NCBI GenBank assembly: GCA_965248445.1
Contig: CBDFJG010000002.1
Location: forward strand, 64,001-128,000
DNA: 64,000 nucleotides
Source: Planctomycetota bacterium
Lineage (GTDB): Bacteria > Planctomycetota > JAJSAM01 > JAJVHW01
Direction: 5' to 3'
The notes beneath the pieces are model-generated. The model was not told where the DNA came from. It did not search any database and saw only the letters and a program-made list of their open reading frames with translations. Every line of letters starts with the position of its first letter. The first letter of the stretch is position 1. Of the stretch, positions 18,736-31,273 are shown one piece after another. The position numbers and the translations under genes are program-made.

Positions 18736-18922
18736 CCCTGAGTCGGGCGTCCGCTGCCCCGGCAGCCCTCAAAAATGAGCCCGCCGCCCCCTCGGCGGCT
18801 ACCTTCCGCGGATTCGACGCCGATCCGCGGTCCCCGGGGCCACGGCACGGCTGTCCCGGACGTGGAAGGAGGGCGGAGTGGACTCGGTAGTCGATTCCTT
18901 CGCCCGGCTCCTGGAGGAAGAG

Positions 18923-21097
18923 ATGAACACGTGGCTCCTCGCCTCTCTCGGTGTGGGCGTGCTCGCGCTGGTCTTCAGCTTTATGCTGCAACTGCGCATC
19001 AAGGGCATGGACGCAGGCAACGAGCTCATGCGCAAGATCGCCGACGCGATCCAGAGCGGAGCGATGGCGTACCTGCGCACGCAGTACACCATCCTCGCGG
19101 GCTTCGCGGTCGTGATGGCAATCGTGCTGTTCACGTTCCTCGACGACGACAAGACACCCGGCCGCAACGAGGGACTCGTCACGGCCATGTGCTTCCTCGT
19201 GGGCTGCCTGTGCTCGGGCCTCGCCGGGTTCCTCGGCATGCGCACGGCGACCACCGCCAACGTACGGACGACCCAGGCGGCGGCCACGACCGGCCTCGGC
19301 GCCGCACTGCGCGCAGCGTTCAGCTCGGGCGCTGTGATGGGCTTCATGGTCGTCGGCTTCGGAATCATCGGCATCACGTCGCTCTACCTCTGGCAGGGCG
19401 GCGGAGACGGCACCGGACTCACGGCGATCGGTGACCCGAACCTCGTGTTCGGGTTCTCGCTCGGCGCCTCGTCGATCGCGCTGTTCGCGCGCGTCGGCGG
19501 CGGCATCTTCACGAAGGCGGCCGACGTCGGCGCCGACCTGGTCGGCAAGGTCGAAGCCGGCATCCCCGAGGACGACGCGCGCAACCCGGCGTCGATCGCG
19601 GACAGCGTCGGCGACAACGTCGGCGACGTCGCCGGAATGGGCGCAGACCTCTTCGAGTCGTACGTCGGCGCCGCGCTGGCCGCCATGGCACTCGGCTACA
19701 TGACGCTGCACAGCCTGAGCCCGGAGATGAAAGCGGTCTTCGAGGACCTGCCGCTCGGTTTCGGGACGATCATCGTCTACCCGATCGTGCTCTGCGCCGC
19801 CGGCACGCTCGCCTCGATGGCGGGCTTCTTCTTCGTCAAGACCGACAACGAGCGCCGGATCATTCCGGCGCTGTTCCGCGGCCTGACGGTCGGCTCAGTC
19901 CTGTTCGCGGCCGCGGCCGTCGGCCTCACGTTCTACTTCGACCTGTTCGGCAAGGACGTCACCGCGGCGCTCACCCACGCCAACCCCGAGGACTGGCGGT
20001 ACACCGGTCCGGGCGGCGTGCTGTGGGCGATCCTGGCGGGACTCGTGATGGGCGTCGCCGTCGGCCGCGTCACCGAGTACTACACATCGGAGCAGAAGCC
20101 CCACGCGCGGGAGATCGCTCGGCAGAGCGAAACCGGCGCGGCGACCAACATCATCCACGGCCTCGCGGTCGGCATGCAGTCGACGGCCTGGCCGACACTC
20201 ATGATCGTCGGCGCCATCGGCATCGCGTACTACTGCAGCGGGATCTACGGCATCGCCATTGCGGCGGTCGGCATGCTCTCGACGCTCGGCATCTCGCTGG
20301 CCGTCGACGCGTACGGCCCGGTGGCCGACAACGCGGGCGGCATCGCCGAGATGGCGCACCTGCCGCCGGAGGTGCGCAACCGCACCGACGCGCTCGACGC
20401 CGCGGGCAATACGACCGCCGCCATCGGCAAGGGCTTCGCGATCGGGTCGGCGGCGCTGACCGCTCTCGCGCTGTTCACCACGTTCAAGCAACAGGCCGGC
20501 CTGGCGTACGCGGCCGAGGGCCGAGTGTTCTCGCTCGACATCGGCAACGTGCAGGTCACGATGGGCATCCTCCTCGGCTCGATGCTGCCGTTCCTGTTCT
20601 CGTCGTTCGCGATGAAGGCGGTCGGCAACGCCGCCGGGAAGATGGTCGAAGAGGTGCGACGTCAGTTCCGCGAGATCAAGGGACTGATGGAGGGCGAGGC
20701 CGAGCCCGACTATGAGCGATGCGTCGCCATCGCCACCAAGGGCGCTCTGCAGCAGATGGTGCTGCCCGGCCTCCTGGCCGTCGCCGCACCGATCGCAACG
20801 GGCCTTCTCCTGGGTCCCGAGGGACTGGGCGGGCTGCTCGTCGGCGCGGTCGGCAGCGGCGTCATGATGGCGATTTTCCAGTCCAACGCGGGCGGCGCGT
20901 GGGACAACGCGAAGAAGTACATCGAGAGCGGTGTGCACGGCGGCAAGGGCAGCGACGCCCACAAGGCCGCGGTCACCGGCGACACCGTCGGCGACCCGTT
21001 CAAGGACACGGCCGGCCCGAGCATCAACATCCTCGTGAAGCTGATGAGCGTGGTCGCGGTGATCTTCCTGCCGCTCTTCCTGAAGTCCATCTCATGA
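18923..21097 (+). CDS. hppA: Membrane-bound pyrophosphatase, K+-dependent, probably Na+-translocating
   Basis: [40 protein letters not shown] (Glu position of Na+-PPases); GNTTAA (Ala = K+-dependent); [18 protein letters not shown]. Confidence 0.97.
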
Positions 21098-21534
21098 CCG
21101 ACCGCGCAGAACCGACGACCCAGCCCGAAACGGAGACGCAGTCCGACCGCATCAGCGGCCGGGAGCTCGCCGTCATGATCGCCCGGCTCGCGGACGAGAA
21201 GCAGGGCCGCAAAATCGTGGTGCTCGACGTCGAGGAGGCGCTGCAGGTCACCGACTACTTCGTGATCGTCGAGGGCCGCAACCGGCGGCATCTCGGTGCC
21301 ATCGCCGAGTCGGTCGCCGCCGAGCTCAAGAAGGACGGCATCTACCGCATGCACGGCACGAAGTTCAACGACGAGCACTGGGTCGTCCTCGACTTCGGTC
21401 CCGTCGTCCTGCACTCGATGAGCAGCGACGCCCGCGAGTTCTACGACCTCGAGAACCTCTGGGGCGACTGCGACGAGATCGAGTGGCAGGCCGCGCCCGA
21501 CGCGGCGCCCGTGGATCAGCCAGAGGCACCGTAG
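21094..21534 (+). CDS. rsfS: Ribosome silencing factor RsfS (Iojap)
   Basis: IVVLDV...TDYFVI...[12 protein letters not shown]...[14 protein letters not shown] overlap with hppA. Confidence 0.95.
21450..21486 (+). repeat. Direct repeat copy 1 (rsfS 3' coding region, attL-like)
   Basis: CGAGAACCTCTGGGGCGACTGCGACGAGATCGAGTGG; 36/37 identical to 25615-25651. Confidence 0.93.
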
Positions 21535-21552
21535 GGGCGGACGCAGCCGAAG

Positions 21553-24500
21553 TCAGTCCTGCGCCGGGACGACGATGCGCACGTCGCGGTCTCCGACCGC
21601 GGCATTGACCCGGTGCTCGCGCTGCTTGTGAGGCTCGCGCGGGTTCACCTGCGGCTCGATCTCCCATCCGGTCGCCGGGTCGAGTCCGGTCATCTCGAAG
21701 CGTCCCGCATCGTCGCTGGTGGTGTGCGGAACGGTGCGCCACGTGCTCTTCGTCGACCGCGGGTGGAAGTACATCCGCATCCCGGCGACCGGCGCACCGT
21801 GTGTGTCGACGACCACTCCTTGCAGGCGCCCTTCGACCGTCGTCCTGACCAGGATTCCGCTCGCACCGCCGTCTGCGGACACGGCCTCCCTGAGCCGGCG
21901 CCACCTCCCGCCCACAGCGCCGGCCGGCTTGATCTCGTAGGAGCCCTCCTCGAGGTCACGGAACGCGAACGTCCCGTCCTCACCGGATGCCACGGAGTAC
22001 GACGAGAGCTGGCCGAAGCCCCCGACCCGCCTGGCATTCAGACTCAGGCCGCCGAGGGGCGCGCCCACGTCATCGACGACACGCCCCGCGAGCGTCTCCC
22101 CGGGGGTCAGTACGAGTTCGTGCTCGGTCTCGCCCGGAGAGATACCTCGGAAGACGCGCGTGGTGCGCGGCTCCGAGTACGCCGTCACACGCACGGCATA
22201 CGAGGGGTCCGCCATGTCGGGGATCCGAATCCGCCCGTCGCCGCCGGTGAAGTTCTGGAATCCGCCGTGGAAACCGCCCTCGGGATGCCACCGCACGGCG
22301 CCCTGTGCGACCGGTGAGCCGTCCGGATAGACCACGTGCAGACGCAGGGACGCGCGCCGGGGATCGTCCAAACGCAGGTCGAGTCCCTCTGCGCCGGCGT
22401 CAAACGGACCGAACGACGTCCCCTTCGCGCTGATCGCCCCGAAGTAGTCGGCGACGTCGGCGGCGCGGAACACGGTCAGCTTGCACGCGCCCTCCGGAAT
22501 CCCGTGGACGGAGAAACGCCCGTCGCTGCCGGTGAGAGCCTCGCGCGGGCGGCCTGGCATCGCACCACCCGCGCTCGGCGTCGAGTAGACGACCAGGCCG
22601 CCCCCGTCCCGCGTCACACCAGGGACGGCGATCACCGTGGCGCCGATGAGGGGCGACCCATCGACGTCGCGGACATGTCCCGACAGCCGCAGCGCACGCC
22701 GCACTCGGACTTCGACCGGATCGAACGATGACGACACCTTCGCGACTCCCTCGATGGTTGCGGCGCTCTCCGCGGAGACCCAGAGGGGTCCCGGGCCGGT
22801 CAGCGTGCACCGGAACCGCCCGTCGTCATCGGTCACGGCGACGATGGGGTCGTTCTGCCACTGGTCCTTCCGGCGCACCCCGCGGATGACGATCGGCTGC
22901 GTGCGAAGGAGGTAGACGCTCGCGCCGACCACGGGCCGACCGGTGGCCTCGACGATGACCCGCCCGGTCAGTTCGTGGCTGTCTCCGATCTCGGCCGGTG
23001 GTTCGCGCTGCTCGACGCGCACGACAATCGGATCCTCGAGACCCGCGGGCGGGACGTCGAGCCGGACGGCCCCAGTCGCAGTCTCGTCCGCTGTCGTGGC
23101 GGAGATCACACGCTTCTTGCCGGGACGCACGTGATCCAGGATGAACGCGCCCCCCGCATCGGTTCGCACGCCGCCGCCGAGCGCGCCCGAGTACGTGTTC
23201 GTGACGACGACGACGGCATCCACGACCGGCACGCCCGCCTCGTCCACGACGCTGCCACGGACGGGTCCGCCAGGAACGACGGCGAGATCGCGTGCGATCT
23301 CGCCGGACTCGGGAATCTCGACGATGAACTCCCCCGGCACGTCGCCCTTCTTCAGCGCTCGACCGACGTTCTCATCGAGGCCCGGCTGATAGAAACCGGG
23401 GTGTCGGACCTCGAGTGCCACGGGACCCGGAAGGTCCGGCGGGAAGCGGAAGCTCCCGTCGTCGTCCGATGTCGTCGACGCCCAGTTCTGGCCGAGGCGC
23501 GACGTGGCCCGCCAGCGCCAGATCTGCACGCCCGCAAGCGTTCCGTCGGGCCCCGTCACCGTGCCTGTGATCACGCCGCCGCGGATCAGCACGGCGTCGA
23601 CCGTCGTGGTATCGCCGGGGAGGATCATCGCCATGCGGCGCGTCGACCCGCCGCGACCCGGCTCGACGAGCTCGGAGCGTTCGATTCGCGGCCACAACTG
23701 CACGCGCTCGTCTGAGAGCACTCGAAACCTGGTAATCCGGCCCTGCGGAACGTCGATGAACTCGTAGCGCCCCTGCTCATCCGTCGTCGCGGTGGTGACG
23801 GTGTTCAGCACGCCGCTGACCTCGATACTCACGACCTCGCTGGCGAGCCCCGCTCCATCCTCGTCGGCAACGCGGCCGACGAGGCGTCCGGTCGGGGGCA
23901 GCGTCAAGTCGATGCTCGTGATGTCGGGAATCCGCACGACGGCAAGCTTGGTCCCCGGACCGTCTCGGCGATCGACCCGGAGCCCGACGTCGCCGAACGG
24001 GAGTCCGTCCAGGCTGAAGTGGCCGTCCGCGTTCGTACGCGTGCGGCTGGGTGCCGCGATCGCGGCTCCGATCTCCGCGTTCACGAGCACGTCCGGGACG
24101 GGCGAGCCGAGCGCGTCGAGCACACGTCCGTCCAGCGTTGCGAGCGGAGTCACGACGACCGTCGCACGTGCCTCCGACGCGCCGGGATAGGTCGACACGA
24201 ACGCGGACCGGTGCGTGCCCATCTCCGCGTCCGCAACGACGATGCGCCAGGACCCGCTGCGCACGTCCTCGAGCACGGCGTCACCGTGCGCACTCGAGCG
24301 CGAGAGCCGCGTCTCGACGACATCCTCATCCCACGCCGACATGCCGCGCAGGTAGCTGTCGACGTGCGCGCGCTCACCGGGCGACCGCCACAGAAGCGCG
24401 GTGACAGGCGCGCCCTCGACCACGTCGCCGCGCATGTCCTCGACGTGGACGAGCAGTCGCGTGCCGCCTGCGATCCAGATCGTCCCGAGATCGTCAGATG

Positions 24501-25509
24501 CGGCGGGGAGCGCGATCGACTCGGACAGGAAGCCCTCTGCGACGACGGCGAGGTTGCCGAGCACCCCGGCGGGCGCGTCGAGCGCGAAGCTCCCGTCGCT
24601 GGCCGTGGTGGCGTGCACCTCTCGCCCGCCGCGGGGACGAACGGAGACATCGACGTGCGCGACCGGAGCACCGTCGTAGCGGCGGCGCACGCGGCCGACG
24701 AGGGTTCTCGGCTCCGTCGGAGTCTCAGGGGCCTCGATGTCCTTCTCGGCCACGCCGGCGGAAGCGTCCGCCGGCTCGGGTGCGGGATCGTCGGCACTCT
24801 CGTCACTCAGCGACGACACGACCCCGGCGGCTCCGGCGAAGAGGAGCAGCGCGGCGACTGCGACGACGGCGATCTTGGACTTGGCGGACATGACGAGGGC
24901 TCCTGTAGCGATGCCTGTGGCGGTGGCCGTGGTGGCTGGAGACGGATCGGGAAGCGGCGTCGCAGTCGGGCCCAGCAGGGGCAGCAACGCGGCGCGCCAG
25001 CGGTCGCGCTCCCCCCCGAACTCGTCATCGAGTTGCTCGCGCAGCAGCGCGTGTGCGCGTCGCAACCGTGTCTTCACGGTCTCGCGCGGCACGCCGGTCC
25101 GCTCGCCGATCTCGGTCGGTGTGAGTTCCTCGAAATGACGCAGCAACACGGTGGTGCGATACGGCTCCGCGAGTTCCATCACGGCGGCGGCGACGGCCCG
25201 TTGCGCGTCGGCGCGCGCCACGAGATCGACCGTCGACGGCAGCACACTGGATCGCATCCGGCGCTCTCGCGCTGAACGCGACGCGTCTGAACGCCGGCGG
25301 TCGATGGCCCGACTGCGCGTGACGCTGGCGAGCCAGCCGCGCAGAGAGCGCACCGTCGGCGGTCGCCGGGTGAGCGCCGTGGCCAGCGCATCCTGTGCCA
25401 CGTCCTCGGCCGTGTGCTCGTCCGCGACCAGGCGCCGCGCAAGCCCCCTGATCCACTCCCTGTGCGAAAGCAGTTCCTCGGGGTCGAGTGGCCGTCCTGC
25501 CTCTTCCAT
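21553..25509 (-). CDS. ECF sigma-70 factor fused to a TM helix and multiple carboxypeptidase-regulatory-like (prealbumin-fold) repeats
   Basis: Region 2 AEDVAQD...LRGWLASV; region 4 LAEPYRTTVLLRHFEELTPTEIG...ETVKTRLRRA; TM KIAVVAVAALLLFAG; repeated GRV.D..G.PV....V...T..DG.F units; RBS GGAG. Confidence 0.92.
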   Translation of the reverse strand: MEEAGRPLDPEELLSHREWIRGLARRLVADEHTAEDVAQDALATALTRRPPTVRSLRGWLASVTRSRAIDRRRSDASRSARERRMRSSVLPSTVDLVARADAQRAVAAAVMELAEPYRTTVLLRHFEELTPTEIGERTGVPRETVKTRLRRAHALLREQLDDEFGGERDRWRAALLPLLGPTATPLPDPSPATTATATGIATGALVMSAKSKIAVVAVAALLLFAGAAGVVSSLSDESADDPAPEPADASAGVAEKDIEAPETPTEPRTLVGRVRRRYDGAPVAHVDVSVRPRGGREVHATTASDGSFALDAPAGVLGNLAVVAEGFLSESIALPAASDDLGTIWIAGGTRLLVHVEDMRGDVVEGAPVTALLWRSPGERAHVDSYLRGMSAWDEDVVETRLSRSSAHGDAVLEDVRSGSWRIVVADAEMGTHRSAFVSTYPGASEARATVVVTPLATLDGRVLDALGSPVPDVLVNAEIGAAIAAPSRTRTNADGHFSLDGLPFGDVGLRVDRRDGPGTKLAVVRIPDITSIDLTLPPTGRLVGRVADEDGAGLASEVVSIEVSGVLNTVTTATTDEQGRYEFIDVPQGRITRFRVLSDERVQLWPRIERSELVEPGRGGSTRRMAMILPGDTTTVDAVLIRGGVITGTVTGPDGTLAGVQIWRWRATSRLGQNWASTTSDDDGSFRFPPDLPGPVALEVRHPGFYQPGLDENVGRALKKGDVPGEFIVEIPESGEIARDLAVVPGGPVRGSVVDEAGVPVVDAVVVVTNTYSGALGGGVRTDAGGAFILDHVRPGKKRVISATTADETATGAVRLDVPPAGLEDPIVVRVEQREPPAEIGDSHELTGRVIVEATGRPVVGASVYLLRTQPIVIRGVRRKDQWQNDPIVAVTDDDGRFRCTLTGPGPLWVSAESAATIEGVAKVSSSFDPVEVRVRRALRLSGHVRDVDGSPLIGATVIAVPGVTRDGGGLVVYSTPSAGGAMPGRPREALTGSDGRFSVHGIPEGACKLTVFRAADVADYFGAISAKGTSFGPFDAGAEGLDLRLDDPRRASLRLHVVYPDGSPVAQGAVRWHPEGGFHGGFQNFTGGDGRIRIPDMADPSYAVRVTAYSEPRTTRVFRGISPGETEHELVLTPGETLAGRVVDDVGAPLGGLSLNARRVGGFGQLSSYSVASGEDGTFAFRDLEEGSYEIKPAGAVGGRWRRLREAVSADGGASGILVRTTVEGRLQGVVVDTHGAPVAGMRMYFHPRSTKSTWRTVPHTTSDDAGRFEMTGLDPATGWEIEPQVNPREPHKQREHRVNAAVGDRDVRIVVPAQD

Positions 25510-25614
25510 GGTCTCCAACACACTAGACGGAGCCCCACGCCCCCGAGGGTTCACGGAGTTGCGCGTCCCCCGCATGGCAGGCAGCTCGAAGCGTCCAGCG
25601 TGCGTGACCTGCTA

Positions 25615-25657
25615 CGAGAACCTGTGGGGCGACTGCGACGAGATCGAGTGGGCTTGA
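25615..25657 (+). pseudogene. Duplicated rsfS 3' fragment (direct repeat copy 2, attR-like) ending in its own stop
   Basis: Encodes [13 protein letters not shown]; the single mismatch to rsfS is synonymous (CTG vs CTC). Confidence 0.88.
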
Positions 25658-25708
25658 AGCGCCCGGGGGAGAGTAAGAGACCCCGTAGTAGCGGGCTGTG
25701 CTCAAGCC
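25651..25708. terminator. Imperfect hairpin after the rsfS-fragment stop, facing Uma2
   Basis: GGCTTGA/TCAAGCC, GCCCG/CGGGC and GGGG/CCCC nested stems. Confidence 0.45.
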
Positions 25709-25714
25709 GCGCGA

Positions 25715-26227
25715 TCAGGCAATCAGGTCGCGACCGCGGAGCGTGAGGTCCGCAACGACCTGCGACGTCGCCGCCTCGTCGGCACTGTGCGTCGTTCGGG
25801 TCGGGCGCGTACAGACCTCGATCGTCCCCGTGATCGGGTCGATCAGCCATACCTCGCGCACGCCGCGGTCCAGGTAGAGGGCGGTCTTCTGTGTCCGATC
25901 GCGCCCTTCCGTCGCGCGCGAGAGGACCTCGATAACGAGCGCTGGGAGCGGCACGCGCTCGAGGTCCGGAGACAGAGCCTGCGTGAACACCGCAACGTCC
26001 GGTTGAACGACGTTGAACTCGTCGAGCACGACGTCGATCGGCGAACTCACCACGCTCTCGGCGCCGACAAGCTCGAGCAGCGTCTGCATCAACCGCGCGA
26101 CGACGCGCTGGTGTCGGTACACCGGCGCCGGCTCGCGGACGAACTCACCATCGATCAGCTCGCAAGGGAACCCCTCGGGGAGCCGGTCGTACTCCGCTCG
26201 CGTGAATTTCAGTTCCGTAGCCAGCAT
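25715..26227 (-). CDS. Uma2-family (PD-(D/E)XK) endonuclease
   Basis: ELIDG...P....HQ...VVQPDVAV...LVIEVLS......DR..K..LY...GVREVWLIDP. Confidence 0.93.
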   Translation of the reverse strand: MLATELKFTRAEYDRLPEGFPCELIDGEFVREPAPVYRHQRVVARLMQTLLELVGAESVVSSPIDVVLDEFNVVQPDVAVFTQALSPDLERVPLPALVIEVLSRATEGRDRTQKTALYLDRGVREVWLIDPITGTIEVCTRPTRTTHSADEAATSQVVADLTLRGRDLIA

Positions 26228-26240
26228 CTATGCATCTCCC

Positions 26241-26271
26241 AAGGACGCGCGAGACACACGTCAGGTTACAT
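26241..26271 (-). promoter_or_regulatory. ECF-type promoter TGTAAC-N17-CGTC
   Basis: Minus strand ATGTAACC-TGACGTGTGTCTCG-CGCGTCCTT directly upstream of Uma2. Confidence 0.7.
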
Positions 26272-26336
26272 GGCGGCTCATGCCGTTCTGTGGTCGTGGC
26301 AGAGCGCTCAAGTGCCCAGGCCGCGCATTCCGCCGG

Positions 26337-27527
26337 CTAGAGGAACTGCACGTGAACGCCCTGGCGGGCCGCGACGATCGCCAGGGCTCGTGCGACGTGC
26401 CATCCATGGGTGCCCTCGAGAATCAGAGGCGACCGCCCGTCTTCCGTGACGAGACCGATGCCGGGATCCGCGGCATCCGGGTCGATCCCCGCATCCCGGA
26501 CAGCGTCGTAGAACGCGTCGTCAGACATGTCGACGCCGGATGCAGAGAGCGAAATGGCCGCCTGTACGAGAAGCCGACCGGGGAGAACGATCCCGGCGTC
26601 TGTCGCATGACTCGCCTCACGGCCGTGGTACGCGCCGAGGACGACTGCCGCAATATCGCGCCACGGGACGAAGCGCCCTGCGAGCCCAACCATCCTCACG
26701 CCACCGTCCTCAATCCGCAGTCGGCGCACGGCGCTCGGCAGTCGCAGTGAGACGAGGAACCAGATCACGAGCAGCACGGGTATGACGGTCAGCTTGAGTA
26801 TGAGAGGCGGCGGACGGTGGGTCTCGACAAGCATCGCGAAGATCGTGAGAACGATCACGCCGCTCCACAGGCCCCACCGCAGTCGGATGGACGACGCCGT
26901 TCGTGTGGTGGGCCGGAACACGGCCGGGAGGTCGAGGGGAGGCAGTGTGGCGCCGACTGGCCGGGATTCGTGTCGAGAGGCACCGTGGCCGTCGGCAGGA
27001 TCTCGCAGGAGCTCCTCCGGTACACGATCGAACGGAAAGCCGATCTCGGTCACGACATACGCGTCGCTCGCCTCGTCGTCTTGGAAGACCAGGACAGTCG
27101 TCTCGTTCAGATACACCGGCGGTCCGGTGTGCGGGGGGATCAAACAGCGCACTGCACGACGTGACTGCTCGAGACCGATGCGGAACTGACGGCCGAGCGG
27201 ACCGGGAACGTCCTCCAACACGGTCGCGGTGCCGGCGCAGCCGGACGCGGCGAGTCGACGCACGCGGTCGATGCGCCGGTTCTTCGTCGCGAGCGAGCTC
27301 CCCGCGATGGCGAGTGTGATCGACGCTGCGACGAGCAGGAAGAACCCGAACAGGCGTGCATCGCCAGCCGCGAACGCGATCACGGCGACGGCGAACGCTC
27401 CGCAGGCCACGGCACACGTCACGACGACCTGACTGCCCCTCCGGTCCCGGAACAGCGATCGTGCGGGACGGAGCGGCGTCAGCTCGCCTGCGCGATCTTC
27501 GATTCGGAGACGCCCGGGAGAGGTCAT
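26337..27527 (-). CDS. Hypothetical membrane protein (two TM-hairpin plus soluble modules)
   Basis: Four hydrophobic helices in two pairs; TAGACT and GGGAG upstream. Confidence 0.65.
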   Translation of the reverse strand: MTSPGRLRIEDRAGELTPLRPARSLFRDRRGSQVVVTCAVACGAFAVAVIAFAAGDARLFGFFLLVAASITLAIAGSSLATKNRRIDRVRRLAASGCAGTATVLEDVPGPLGRQFRIGLEQSRRAVRCLIPPHTGPPVYLNETTVLVFQDDEASDAYVVTEIGFPFDRVPEELLRDPADGHGASRHESRPVGATLPPLDLPAVFRPTTRTASSIRLRWGLWSGVIVLTIFAMLVETHRPPPLILKLTVIPVLLVIWFLVSLRLPSAVRRLRIEDGGVRMVGLAGRFVPWRDIAAVVLGAYHGREASHATDAGIVLPGRLLVQAAISLSASGVDMSDDAFYDAVRDAGIDPDAADPGIGLVTEDGRSPLILEGTHGWHVARALAIVAARQGVHVQFL

Positions 27528-27580
27528 CGAACTCCCAACGCTCGGCAGTCTATCGGCTGCGTCTCTTCGACTCGCCTCGC

Positions 27581-28540
27581 CTACTCCGGTAGCGTCATCG
27601 GCGCGACGAGGGGGGCGTTCGTGCGAGAGGTTCCCGCGGGGCCGGGCAGGAAGCTGATGCGCTTCGCGCGCTGATCGAACGTGACGGCGAAGCGTTCGAG
27701 GATCTTCGTGCCGATGCGCGCCGGGCCGACGCCGACCAGCACCGGCGGGTTCGGGATCACATGCGAACCGATCCGCAGGTCGCCCTCGAGCAGGTGCATG
27801 CGCTCGTGCCAGGTGCCGTGCACCGTGTGGTAGACAACGTCCTTCCCGGAGACCGACAGCGCGAGATCGGCAGCGATCGTCTCCGGCACGGAGATGTGGC
27901 CGTCGAAGCCGCTGTCCACCGCAACGTGCACCTCCTTGTCTCCGAGGCGCACGCGGATCACCGGCACTCCGGCCTGGAACTGGAACGGTATGACCGTGGC
28001 GTGGTCGGGCGGCGGCAGCGAGCCCTCCGAGCAGCGCATCCGCCTGGCCGGGCCGTCGAGCGTCAGCAGCAGGTCGCCGAACACGGACAGGCCGAACAGC
28101 CCGGCGAACGCACCGGGCAGTGGGATGGCCCAGAAGTCCAGCTGCTCGAAGCGAATGTCACCGCGGTCCCCCACCACGACCATCTCGTCGATCGTGCCCT
28201 TGCGCACCATCGACCAGCGAGAGTCGCCGGCTCCGCGCACGTACCGCGGGGCGCTGCTCGTCTCGAGCGACAGGCGGCGCAACTGCGACGGAGCCAGCAC
28301 GCAGAGGCTCGATCCGGTGTCGAGCAGGAACGGCAGCTCGTCGCTGTCGTTGATCCGCACCGTCGCGACGAAGTCGCCACCGGACCATGTGAGCGGGACA
28401 TCGCCACCGCCGGACGGCATCGCGATGACCGCCGGTTCATGACGCGTCGTCGGGAGAGCGCAGCCGGTGAGAAGACCGGCGGCCAGCAGGACGGCGGCGG
28501 CCAGGAGGGCGACGGGACTGCGCGGCTGACTAGCCCGCAT
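27581..28540 (-). CDS. Lipoprotein, two-domain retropepsin-like aspartyl protease
   Basis: Lipobox LTGC; FLLDTGSS and VAVDSGFDG catalytic motifs; GLFG and ARIG hydrophobic-Gly motifs. Confidence 0.88.
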   Translation of the reverse strand: MRASQPRSPVALLAAAVLLAAGLLTGCALPTTRHEPAVIAMPSGGGDVPLTWSGGDFVATVRINDSDELPFLLDTGSSLCVLAPSQLRRLSLETSSAPRYVRGAGDSRWSMVRKGTIDEMVVVGDRGDIRFEQLDFWAIPLPGAFAGLFGLSVFGDLLLTLDGPARRMRCSEGSLPPPDHATVIPFQFQAGVPVIRVRLGDKEVHVAVDSGFDGHISVPETIAADLALSVSGKDVVYHTVHGTWHERMHLLEGDLRIGSHVIPNPPVLVGVGPARIGTKILERFAVTFDQRAKRISFLPGPAGTSRTNAPLVAPMTLPE

Positions 28541-28768
28541 CGTTCACCAGGCTCACGCGCCGGAGCGGCCCAGAACGCCGATCTCTGCGTTGCGCCGCCT
28601 CCACAACCCGTTCGGGGGTGCGTTCGGCGGCGCGCCTACAGCTCGACACTCTGTCCTCGCTCTGGACGACGTCGGTGGGTGCGCGAGAGATCGCCGCACG
28701 CAGGCAGACACTGGACATCGTTGGTATGTCGCCACGAACCGCGCAAGCCTGGTGAACGAAGCGGGCTA
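28531..28768. mobile_element. MITE-like non-autonomous element with 23-bp terminal inverted repeats and TA at both ends
   Basis: TAGCCCGCATCGTTCACCAGGCT (28531-28553) vs reverse complement of 28746-28768 TAGCCCGCTTCGTTCACCAGGCT, 22/23; no credible CDS inside. Confidence 0.7.
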
Positions 28769-29221
28769 AAGACCGGCAATGTCGGACTGGCTGACGACCG
28801 GGAACTTCACGTCGTCGAGCGCCGGATCGATCCCGAGCAAGCGCATGACGTTGCGCTGAAGGGAGTCGGTGGGCAGCCGCTCGAGGCGCGACTCCCGGCC
28901 CATCGCCTCCTGCTGGATGCCGCGCAGGACGTGATGCCGGTACGCAGTGCCGTTCTGGTCCACGAAGCCGACCTCCTCGAAGTCCGTGTCGTAGACGTAC
29001 TTCCAGGTGAAGGTCGGGCCGCCTTGCTCCGTGACGTCGAACACCTTGAGGAAGCCGACGTGGCCGGCGTGGGCCGCGTTGACCGCGTGATACGCACGCA
29101 GCTGACGCGACATCCGCGAGCCGCGGTCGACCTGCCGATGCTGGTCCTGCGTGATGGTGGTCCGGCAGGCAGGCGCCACGAGGGCGCCGAGCAGCAGGGC
29201 GAGAACGAGCGAGCGTGACAT
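28766..29221 (-). CDS. Hypothetical lipoprotein
   Basis: MSRSLVLALLLGALVAPAC; RBS GGAGGG and TACCAT upstream. Confidence 0.75.
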   Translation of the reverse strand: MSRSLVLALLLGALVAPACRTTITQDQHRQVDRGSRMSRQLRAYHAVNAAHAGHVGFLKVFDVTEQGGPTFTWKYVYDTDFEEVGFVDQNGTAYRHHVLRGIQQEAMGRESRLERLPTDSLQRNVMRLLGIDPALDDVKFPVVSQSDIAGL

Positions 29222-29332: not shown

Positions 29333-31273
29333 ATGGACGTCGACACCGTTCTCGGCCCCGGCGGCCTCGTCGCCGCGCGTCTCCCCGCCTACGAGGAGCG
29401 CCCGGAGCAGATGCAGATGGCCGTGGCCGTGGATCGGACCATGCGAGAGGGCGGACGCCTGATGGCCGAGGCCGGAACCGGTGTCGGCAAGAGCTTCGCG
29501 TACCTCGTCCCGGCGGTGGCTGCGGCCGCCGAGCGGGGGGAGCGGGTGGTCATCGCCACGCACACCATCGCGCTGCAGGAGCAGCTGCTCGGCAAGGACG
29601 TCCCGTTCCTCTCCGGGATCCTCCCGGCGGAGTTCAGCGTCGTTCTCGCCAAGGGCCGCGGGAACTTCCTCTGCCTCCGTCGGATGGGCTTGGCCGACCG
29701 CGGCGGCAAGCAGCTCTTCGAGAGCGGTGGCGTCGACGAGCAGCTCCAGCGCATCATCGACTGGGCGAAGACGACGCACGGCGGCTCGCTACAGGAGCTC
29801 GACTTCGTTCCGGATCGCTCGCTCTGGAACCGCGTCAACGCGGAGGCGGGCAACTGTCTCGGGCGCGCCTGCGACTTCTACGACCAGTGCTTCTACCAGG
29901 CCGGCCACCGGCGACTGCGCAACGCGAACGTGATCGTCGCCAACCACGCGTTCCTGTTCGCGGACATGGCGCTGCGCCAGGTCGGATGGAACCTCTTGCC
30001 CGACTACGAGCACCTCGTGCTCGACGAAGCGCACGCGGTCGAGGATGTCGCAGCGGACTGGATCGGCATGCGGGTTTCTCGCGGACAGGTGAACTACCTG
30101 TTCCGGCAACTTGCGAGCACACGTGCGAAGGGACTGCTCTACACAACCGCGGAGTCCGGGCGAGCGGTCGGCGCCGTGGCCGCAGCACGCGAAGAAGCGA
30201 AGGCGTTCTTCGATGAAGCCGGCGCCTGGCACGACGCCGCGAAACCGGAGAACCACCGGATCAGTGAGCCGCACCTCTTCTCGTCGCGGTTGCGCGACGC
30301 GCTCGACGCCGTCGGCCACGAGGTCAAGCAACTCGCCGATCGAGAGCCGACGAAGGAGAAGCGGCTCGAGCTCTCGGCCCGGGCCGGGCGAGCGCACGCG
30401 CTCTCCGAGGAACTCGGCTCCCTGCTCGCCCTCGCGAGGCTCGGACACGTGTATTGGATCGAGCGGGAGGGCCGCGACAACGTCGCGCTCCGCAGCGCCC
30501 CCGTGGACGTGGGGACGGACCTCTCGGCGCAACTGTGGGATCGGCTCAAGAGCGTGACGCTCACGAGCGCGACGCTGTCGGCAGGCGGCGAAGCGGGCTT
30601 CGCGCATCTCGCCGGACGGCTTGGTCTCAGCGGCGCCACGACGCTCGAGTGCGGATCGCCGTTCGACTATCGGAGTCAGGCGCGACTGATCGTCGACACG
30701 CGGGTCCCCGAGCCGTCGGAGCGGACGGCGTACGAGACCGCGCTGCCATCGGCCGTCATGCGGCACATCGCGCGTTCGGAGGGCGGCGTGTTCGTGCTGT
30801 TCACGAGCTACCAATCCCTCAACCGGTGTCATGAAGCGTGCGCAGGAGAGTTGCGGGCGCTCGGGCACACGGTGTTCAAGCAGGGCGACGGAATGCCGCG
30901 CGGGACGATGCTCGAACGCTTCCGCGCGGCGGAGTCAGGCGTGCTCTTCGGTACGGACTCGTTCTGGCAGGGCGTGGACGTGCCGGGGGATGCGCTGACC
31001 ACCGTCATCATCACGCGACTGCCCTTCGCGGTGCCCACGCAGCCGCTGAACGAAGCGCGCACAGAAGCGATCGAGGCGCGCGGCGGCAGCGCGTTCAGCG
31101 AGTACTCGCTGCCGCAGGCGATCCTGAAGTTCAAGCAGGGCTTCGGACGCCTGATCCGCCGCCGCACCGACCACGGCTCGGTCGTCGTGCTGGACCAGCG
31201 CGTCGTCTCGAAGCGCTACGGCCGCGCGTTCATCGACGGACTGCCGCCGGTCGAGTTGGAGGTCGAGGCCTAG
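29333..31273 (+). CDS. dinG: ATP-dependent DNA helicase, DinG/YoaA family
   Basis: Q motif RPEQ; EAGTGVGKS; KGRGNFLC and C-x4-C-x5-C Fe-S cysteines; DEAH; TSATL; LFTSY; FWQGVD; QGFGRLIR. Confidence 0.96.
   Translation: MDVDTVLGPGGLVAARLPAYEERPEQMQMAVAVDRTMREGGRLMAEAGTGVGKSFAYLVPAVAAAAERGERVVIATHTIALQEQLLGKDVPFLSGILPAEFSVVLAKGRGNFLCLRRMGLADRGGKQLFESGGVDEQLQRIIDWAKTTHGGSLQELDFVPDRSLWNRVNAEAGNCLGRACDFYDQCFYQAGHRRLRNANVIVANHAFLFADMALRQVGWNLLPDYEHLVLDEAHAVEDVAADWIGMRVSRGQVNYLFRQLASTRAKGLLYTTAESGRAVGAVAAAREEAKAFFDEAGAWHDAAKPENHRISEPHLFSSRLRDALDAVGHEVKQLADREPTKEKRLELSARAGRAHALSEELGSLLALARLGHVYWIEREGRDNVALRSAPVDVGTDLSAQLWDRLKSVTLTSATLSAGGEAGFAHLAGRLGLSGATTLECGSPFDYRSQARLIVDTRVPEPSERTAYETALPSAVMRHIARSEGGVFVLFTSYQSLNRCHEACAGELRALGHTVFKQGDGMPRGTMLERFRAAESGVLFGTDSFWQGVDVPGDALTTVIITRLPFAVPTQPLNEARTEAIEARGGSAFSEYSLPQAILKFKQGFGRLIRRRTDHGSVVVLDQRVVSKRYGRAFIDGLPPVELEVEA

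Follow-up and report, generated by a model that had tools for sequence, protein, structure and literature searches.

An extracytoplasmic function sigma-factor fusion gene flanked by a duplicated rsfS 3' end in a planctomycete genome

How can a single large regulatory gene come to lie behind a conserved housekeeping gene, between two copies of that gene's 3' end, when no recombinase accompanies it? This question is raised by rsfS in a 64,000-nucleotide stretch of a Planctomycetota genome (GenBank assembly GCA_965248445.1; the whole stretch, C2:64001-128000 of the 5.4-Mb source genome G000, is called the window hereafter). The rsfS gene (21094..21534, plus strand; PF02410, TIGR00090) is intact, single-copy and encodes 146 amino acids. 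Part of its coding sequence recurs downstream, and the DNA in between is largely occupied by the gene of a 1318-residue extracytoplasmic function (ECF) sigma fusion. A first, sequence-only reading had taken this arrangement for a minimal cassette integrated into rsfS. That DNA was inserted at the 3' end of rsfS, with the gene kept intact, is supported by the analysis described here. The ECF gene probably came on a chromosomal piece from a close relative, which would have recombined through the shared rsfS end without an integrase.

The repeat, the displaced gene end and the cargo

The upstream copy of the repeat (21450..21486, plus strand) is the last conserved block of rsfS, in which the ENLW(G/S)DC codons are near-identical across the family and the DNA of which is conserved across genera. 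It stops 48 bp short of the gene end and is followed by a low-complexity tail of 15 amino acids (21487..21534, plus strand). The downstream copy (25615..25651, plus strand) is identical at 36/37 positions, at a spacing of 4165 bp. As had been claimed, the sole mismatch (CTC/CTG, leucine) is silent, in a block where 15 of the 108 possible single changes are synonymous. These are the only two copies in the 5.4-Mb genome with up to eight mismatches allowed, and the local alignment score of 69 compares with at most 31 in 20 resampled controls. Between the copies lie the 15-codon rsfS tail, 18 bp separating the stop codons of the two genes, the minus-strand ECF gene (21553..25509) and 105 bp. The insert was also correctly described as recombinase-less: no match to integrase or transposase genes was obtained in it, and no recombinase match in the rest of the window. 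The long upstream rsfS tail may have arrived together with the insert. It had been considered an element-made replacement; it is instead typical of the family, tails of 15-32 residues resembling it being present in 7/7 family relatives.

The downstream copy goes beyond the 37-bp core. It is followed (25652..25694, plus strand) by 7 nt replacing 18 nt of rsfS, which create a TGA at 25655-25657, and then by a decayed tail. The final 30 nt of rsfS align with 25659-25688 at 22/30 positions, with a TAG (25686-25688) in register, and the similarity continues for 6 nt beyond this TAG (26/36 counting the flank). In the old frame, the decayed tail reads APGGE*ETP*. The ungapped tail match has a p value of 0.0006 against 8778 post-stop sequences and of 0.0007 against 4389 gene tails, rising to about 0.003 with gaps and to 0.02 when anchored. 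Because the decayed tail reaches an in-register TAG, the second copy reads as the whole displaced rsfS end, and IEWA*, the ending that excision had been expected to leave, as a derived, shortened form whose former tail can still be made out past the stop. The previous description of a copy ending in GCT TGA followed by a hairpin thus holds for the TGA, whereas the copy runs on to the TAG and the hairpin is weak. Very short RsfS tails are natural in the phylum, as illustrated by G040, which ends in ...DWE*.

Divergence is uneven along this displaced end, with 1/37 differences in the core vs 8/30 in the tail (p 0.008), and the tail changes are non-synonymous, with a frameshift and stops. Most simply, this would mean that the tail was already lost from the recipient allele when the insertion took place, the core being kept under selection in both lineages. 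The remnant has no detectable leftward extension, rsfS homology being not significant in the left flank (p 0.40-0.86). The approximately 60 bp found there, between promoter and remnant (25554..25614), show neither significant rsfS homology nor arm-type repeats and may represent the far end of the incoming fragment. No 8-mer is common to both rsfS flanks, a comparison which short or degenerate arms would escape and which does reveal such repeats in a control array. No further remnant was detected deeper in the slot (score 30, control maximum 32).

The imperfect hairpin predicted at 25650..25709, formed partly from the decayed tail, lies just beyond the stop codon of the neighbouring Uma2-family gene. 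It is modest (z -1.5 on the plus strand, -2.5 on the minus strand), a scan for sigma-70 promoters and terminators gave none at this place, and it does not form a canonical terminator. The sequence behind the remnant was also considered as a repetitive extragenic palindrome or a miniature inverted-repeat transposable element (MITE), and rejected as such since it occurs once in the genome. A 27-residue open reading frame (MAGSS...IEWA*, 25574-25657) and an antisense one of 168 residues were taken as chance occurrences.

The ECF protein combines sigma regions r2 and r4 with one predicted membrane helix (residues about 213-231, from a crude hydropathy scan) and nine carboxypeptidase-regulatory-like repeats of Ig type (CarboxypepD_reg). 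An ECF-type promoter-like motif, TGAACC-N18-CGTCT (25524..25553, minus strand), is located just 5' of its start and is kept upstream of the G006 and G005 orthologs; the insert appears therefore to be essentially one gene with its promoter. This promoter might be autoregulated; by analogy with other ECF factors, the protein would be tethered to the membrane, be freed by a signal from the envelope and then act as a sigma factor on its own promoter. Full-length orthologs (58% identity in G006, 41% in G005, 34% in G001) are found at unrelated loci, without remnants. ECF fusions are indeed greatly expanded in the family, with up to 35 matches per genome among the genomes scored, in keeping with the literature on planctomycete ECFs (PMC7671368). 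A matching ECF group for the cargo may already be described in the literature.

The slot behind rsfS and gene-end remnants elsewhere

The relatives used for comparison are metagenome-assembled Planctomycetota genomes, to which a phylum survey of 33 rsfS loci was added, with 1.4-10 kb downstream of each. The membrane H+-pyrophosphatase gene hppA (18878..21097, plus strand; PF03030) is a conserved 5' neighbour of rsfS, its homolog being immediately upstream in 7/7 family relatives. On the 3' side, the window holds three more accessory genes behind the ECF insert: a Uma2-family gene (25715..26227, minus strand), not seen behind rsfS in the relatives' loci examined, a gene without known function (26337-27527) and an aspartyl protease gene (27581-28540). 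They are followed by the gene of a conserved small protein, lipoprotein-like by inspection (28766..29221, minus strand), and by a DinG/YoaA-like helicase gene (29333-31273, plus strand). This small gene lies directly behind rsfS in G006, G007 and G015 and would be the ancestral 3' neighbour, in an order hppA-rsfS-small gene-dinG deduced from these sequences. Such an order is direct in 2/7 family genomes, interrupted by other cargo in 3/7, and synteny is lost in 2/7. A MITE-like element of about 240 bp with 29-bp terminal inverted repeats (28531-28768) overlaps the aspartyl protease gene at its start and the small conserved gene at its stop; partial or whole relatives of it are present at several other genome sites.

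The idea of a variable slot is thus sustained in so far as its content differs across the family, whereas a dedicated sigma-module slot or an attachment (att) site is not, as neither an ECF gene nor a remnant is found directly behind rsfS in any of the 7 family relatives. The genomes compared belong to other genera, none to the same genus, and show a single rsfS end with no ECF gene at that site. Among the 33 phylum loci, none carries an rsfS remnant (scores 21-34 vs 69 here), two loci scoring 1-2 points above their 10-shuffle maximum being treated as having none, and a single recombinase match, Xer-like, was recorded near them. Scanning with the core pattern gave 8 matches in GTDB (7 family rsfS genes and 1 unrelated), 9 in metagenomes (6 rsfS and 3 unrelated) and 0 in viral contigs. 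Every rsfS locus scanned in GTDB and the metagenomes has a single match, and the DEIEW allele is present in none. The empty sites or IEWA* alleles that the sequence-only reading had suggested looking for in related genomes were therefore not found, other cargo being held by 3/7 family relatives.

The arrangement at rsfS is not isolated in this genome. Predicted genes were compared with intergenic DNA within 30 kb; 66 matches scored at least 44, of which 21 were kept after dropping those with distant copies. The gene caller places some starts wrongly, and long remnants are missed where they are themselves scored as genes. A 3' fragment recurs downstream of 10 genes (14 remnants) and upstream of none (p 0.002), while 5' fragments recur downstream for 3 genes and upstream for 1, and mid-gene fragments for 3; for low-score matches, the classes are roughly symmetric. 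The duplicated fragments at the 10 genes range from 34 to 164 bp, and their position also varies (about -210 and -55 in one gene encoding a MerR-TPR protein), which leaves no fixed core. The targets are unrelated and mostly non-housekeeping, among them genes for a nitroreductase, an aldehyde dehydrogenase, a Rieske/glutamate-synthase-like protein and the MerR-TPR protein. Five remnants start 2-56 bp past the cargo stop codon, so that integrase arms would hardly fit. Counted over 8 ungapped pairs, the differences at codon positions 1/2/3 number 5/7/28 (p 0.002 vs the 46% expected for duplication in place), and many are C/G swaps. The pair from G006 (6/5/4 in its 5' half), gapped pairs and the four remnants of an arm-repeat array were left unpooled; the third-position share of 28/40 becomes 32/55 once the G006 pair is added. 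Because of this bias of 28/40 across the 8 ungapped pairs, both rsfS ends probably derive from once-coding alleles of different lineages, as the sequence-only reading had proposed from the silent mismatch.

ECF fusions are the cargo in 2/9 cases here. The enrichment has a P of 0.001-0.008, the rsfS case being one of the two; without it (1/8), a hand calculation gives about 0.04-0.11, which is only suggestive. A check for other ECF fusions flanked in the same way was thus partly rewarding, with one more in the genome, at the MerR-TPR gene, on targets which are mostly not housekeeping genes. This gene (C1:352389-358773) lies beside ligD and ku and has two 3' remnants at differing positions; one of its inserts holds a 621-residue ECF fusion and a partner gene, and the stop codon of the following gene sits within the outer remnant. 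In 1.70 Mb of relatives' sequence, two clear 3' remnants were found, neither with an integrase match, and 1/29 of the sampled ECF fusions is remnant-bracketed. The G005 remnant (C60:14110-16453) is 145 bp long with 96.6% identity. The one in G006 (C59, about 503600-507750; 161 bp, 84%) brackets an ECF fusion of about 1000 residues and begins a few bases past its stop. Weaker matches in relatives, namely 36 bp of mutS and a duplicated ABC transporter accompanied by a long pseudogene, were not ranked among the clear cases.

Other loci of the survey show different features. At C4:535536-548893, a 108-residue gene is followed by four tail remnants with mostly synonymous differences and shared flank repeats, which looks like an integrase-driven tandem array. 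Reciprocal remnants, in which the 3' ends of both converging genes are duplicated around one small cargo, are present at C3:1337958-1338945 and C1:453242-455925, an arrangement beyond explanation by one one-sided event. At C4:1160554-1163451, a nitroreductase gene is followed by two paralogs (42% identical) parted by a 93%-identical nitroreductase tail, the aligned core of which differs at synonymous sites only. Gene 5' fragments recurring downstream (C4:518466/525191, C2:642262/644766) fall outside a tail-displacement model. Multi-block intergenic repeats about 18 kb apart surround an ECF fusion and paralogous beta-helix-like genes at C3:436200-457700. Direct repeats of 27 bp with one mismatch bracket ECF-fusion clusters at C2:401927/412765 and C4:1652418/1657121; they were not counted, being intergenic on both sides, and a related sequence is also found upstream of the ECF start at C2:407048. 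The genome also has 22 tyrosine-recombinase matches on several contigs, some of them identical pairs at two loci and many beside tRNAs or insertion sequences.

How the ECF gene may have arrived

The arrangement itself, a repeat unique in the genome, a tail in decay, a slot of variable content and an insert free of recombinase genes are directly seen; the following course of events would account for them. The donor would have carried a long-tail rsfS followed by the ECF gene with its own promoter, and the recipient a truncated allele ending in IEWA*, its old tail being already untranslated DNA facing the Uma2 gene. A fragment reaching from near the rsfS end to just beyond the ECF promoter would have entered the cell. 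It may then have been circularised, possibly by Ku/LigD, and integrated by one crossover in the last conserved rsfS block; or it may have been anchored in rsfS, its far end being joined illegitimately. These two routes are indistinguishable here. In either case, the upstream gene would gain the donor tail and the recipient end would be displaced 4165 bp downstream. A later RecA-dependent deletion between the cores could take out the ECF gene and bring back the IEWA* ending, which would be a rare accident, not a programmed switch. Genes for recA, a comEC-type protein, dprA, ku and ligD are present in the genome, which shows capacity, not use.

Several observations weigh against such an insertion. 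A 37-bp core is short for RecA, which requires a minimum of about 25-30 bp. Neither a conspecific genome nor an empty allele was found in the GTDB and metagenome scans, and the direction of insertion and the donor are therefore inferred. The decay of the G006 remnant left out of the pooled count is neutral-looking (6/5/4 in the 5' half). Experimental duplications of 109-950 bp are longer than the core (PMC3240628). Moreover, rsfS is conserved, the type of gene that integrases favour, the repeats of tyrosine integrases span 8-60 bp, a range that includes 37 bp (PMC5704250), and the genome has the 22 tyrosine-recombinase matches as well as one array (C4:535-549 kb) in which arm-like repeats occur.

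These last features, together with the conservation of the core DNA across genera and the four remnants with shared flank repeats in that array, are also what speaks for a decayed site-specific element of the kind known as a cis-mobilizable element (CIME). A tyrosine-integrase element would have brought the ECF gene and a replacement rsfS end, a repeat at a housekeeping gene end suiting those of integrative and mobilizable elements (IMEs) (PMC5704250), and its integrase and arms would since have been lost. Such an origin is rather unlikely. The rsfS flanks share no 8-mers, unlike those of the control array; the free space amounts to just 18 bp at one end and about 60 bp at the opposite one; and the closest integrase match is about 73 kb off. 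The 33 rsfS loci of relatives offer no remnant and one recombinase match, the Xer-like one, within up to 10 kb downstream, the viral contigs do not match the core, and the slot shows no second remnant (30 vs a control maximum of 32). A duplication in place appears less probable still. In this case, repair or template switching around an ECF fragment that had been captured would have copied the cell's own rsfS end; the tail of the copy would have decayed and the core would later have been re-homogenised by gene conversion. The frameshift, stops and non-synonymous changes of the displaced tail are compatible with this, as are the reciprocal remnants of converging genes (2/8 places) and the neutral-looking decay of some remnants. 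An extra step is nevertheless required to explain 1/37 vs 8/30 differences, and the pooled third-position bias and C/G swaps indicate separately selected alleles. The core of the nitroreductase remnant has synonymous changes only, while the flanking paralogs are 42% identical.

An active cassette, in which sensor-sigma modules would be exchanged at a dedicated rsfS slot by a trans-acting recombinase, is very improbable. The insert is indeed a minimal gene-plus-promoter unit, the slot content varies across the family, and ECF genes are the cargo in 2/9 cases here and 1/29 in sampled relatives. Yet 7/7 family relatives have neither an ECF gene directly behind rsfS nor a remnant, the three ECF inserts lie at three unrelated target genes with no common core, and the flank of the rsfS junction shows no similarity to those of nine other remnants in the genome. 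The circle predicted by the sequence-only reading was not seen either: no joint between the copies, be it of a circle or of an empty site, is listed in the Logan contigs of four runs, all from one sample, contigs being prone to lose rare variants. No RNA run is listed among those containing the stretch. In three of the four runs, separately assembled contigs cover 20986-28605, including both copies, in one piece with zero differences. This spanning weighs against an artefact and tells little on excision, because the genome may itself stem from this sample and because of that loss of rare variants. An assembly artefact, which the sequence-only reading had named as a possible refutation and for which the single, perhaps identical, source of the only runs with this stretch could be invoked, is hardly credible, since copy 2 differs from copy 1 and has a diverged tail. 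Equally so is a chance repeat, with a score of 69 vs at most 31 in the controls.

Significance and comparison with known systems

Insertion anchored in the shared rsfS end would make this locus a clean example of a known, mechanistically unsettled mode of gene gain, of which neither the target nor the 1318-residue sensor-sigma cargo was found described. Scars of this kind are already known; the novel aspects are that rsfS is the target and an ECF fusion the cargo, that a decayed tail persists beyond the stop codon and, for this lineage, the asymmetry of the remnants across the genome. In the literature searched, which leaves out most subscription papers, no article was found to name rsfS as a target. 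The case also calls for caution, since a short repeat at a housekeeping gene end alone does not make an att site. The wider pattern (10 genes, strictly downstream fragments, allele-like differences, two relatives) provides a testable route by which planctomycete ECF fusions could have come to lack context conservation, as they are known to do. It might even be speculated, with considerable doubt, that integrase-free, tail-displacing insertion is a main spread route of the family's membrane-anchored ECF sensors. Portable units of a gene and its autoregulated promoter would land behind any shared gene end, the flanking repeat allowing loop-out as a circle and re-entry into the same gene in a neighbour. 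If true, sensors would turn over like cassettes without a dedicated recombinase.

The cargo resembles planctomycete ECFs such as ECF57 (PMC7826278, PMC7671368), which combine sigma2 and sigma4 with a membrane helix and a large variable extension. These fusions show lineage-specific expansion and no conserved gene context, and membrane release has been proposed as their activation route. The present protein differs from ECF57 in its nine CarboxypepD_reg repeats and in the absence of the ECF57 cysteine pair, its translated sigma domain having no cysteine. The crude hydropathy scan gives it one predicted helix, as compared with about two in ECF57. A promoter-like motif is moreover conserved at its gene, whereas ECF57 is described as having none.

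As for the insertion itself, IMEs and CIMEs (PMC5704250) likewise leave a short direct repeat that includes a housekeeping gene end and restore the gene, and their integrase-less remnants pile up in tandem. In contrast to them, no arm-like repeat was detected at the locus, no cognate integrase element at the 33 rsfS loci, which are few and distantly related, and no core common to the ten targets; rsfS is also absent from the integration targets in the portion of the PMC5704250 table examined. Hotspots of horizontal gene transfer without mobile elements (Oliveira et al. 2017, PMC5635113) are alike in their variable content between conserved flanking genes, with no integrase and recombination at the flanks. 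Their model however involves two crossovers, by which no gene end is duplicated. In homology-facilitated illegitimate recombination (HFIR) and displacement arrays (PMC3240628; Kirchberger et al. 2017, PMC5361080), a conserved upstream anchor gene is followed by a foreign gene, the old sequence being pushed downstream, as here. HFIR usually deletes recipient DNA (PMC3240628), in contrast to the duplication seen at rsfS, and donor sequence is needed to recognise its junction microhomology of 3-10 bp.

Two described processes come closer. When trimmed DNA with homology at one end is recircularised and integrated by a single crossover (Amarir-Bouhram et al. 2011, PMC3240628), the process is RecA-dependent and integrase-free, and leaves foreign DNA flanked by a partial gene-end duplication of variable length, the same arrangement as here. 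It was shown with a conjugated plasmid in E. coli, where partial duplications of the homologous locus were present in 56/60 clones, with lengths of 109-950 bp as compared with a 37-bp core here (about 75 bp with the tail). Insertion with long target duplication (Furuta, Abe & Kobayashi 2010, PMC2853133), common in competent species, produces inserts that are, as here, shorter than 20 kb and devoid of a mobility gene. They are flanked by a unique direct repeat of more than 30 bp, the copies of which differ slightly (44/46 in H. influenzae). This repeat often spans the gene stop while the gene stays intact, and its length varies by locus, as in the present genome. That process was defined by an empty site in another strain, and the cases studied carry restriction-modification genes, a search criterion of the study and not part of the mechanism, whereas the cargo here is an ECF sigma fusion. 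The rsfS locus further differs in that its displaced end consists of a well-kept core with a decayed tail.

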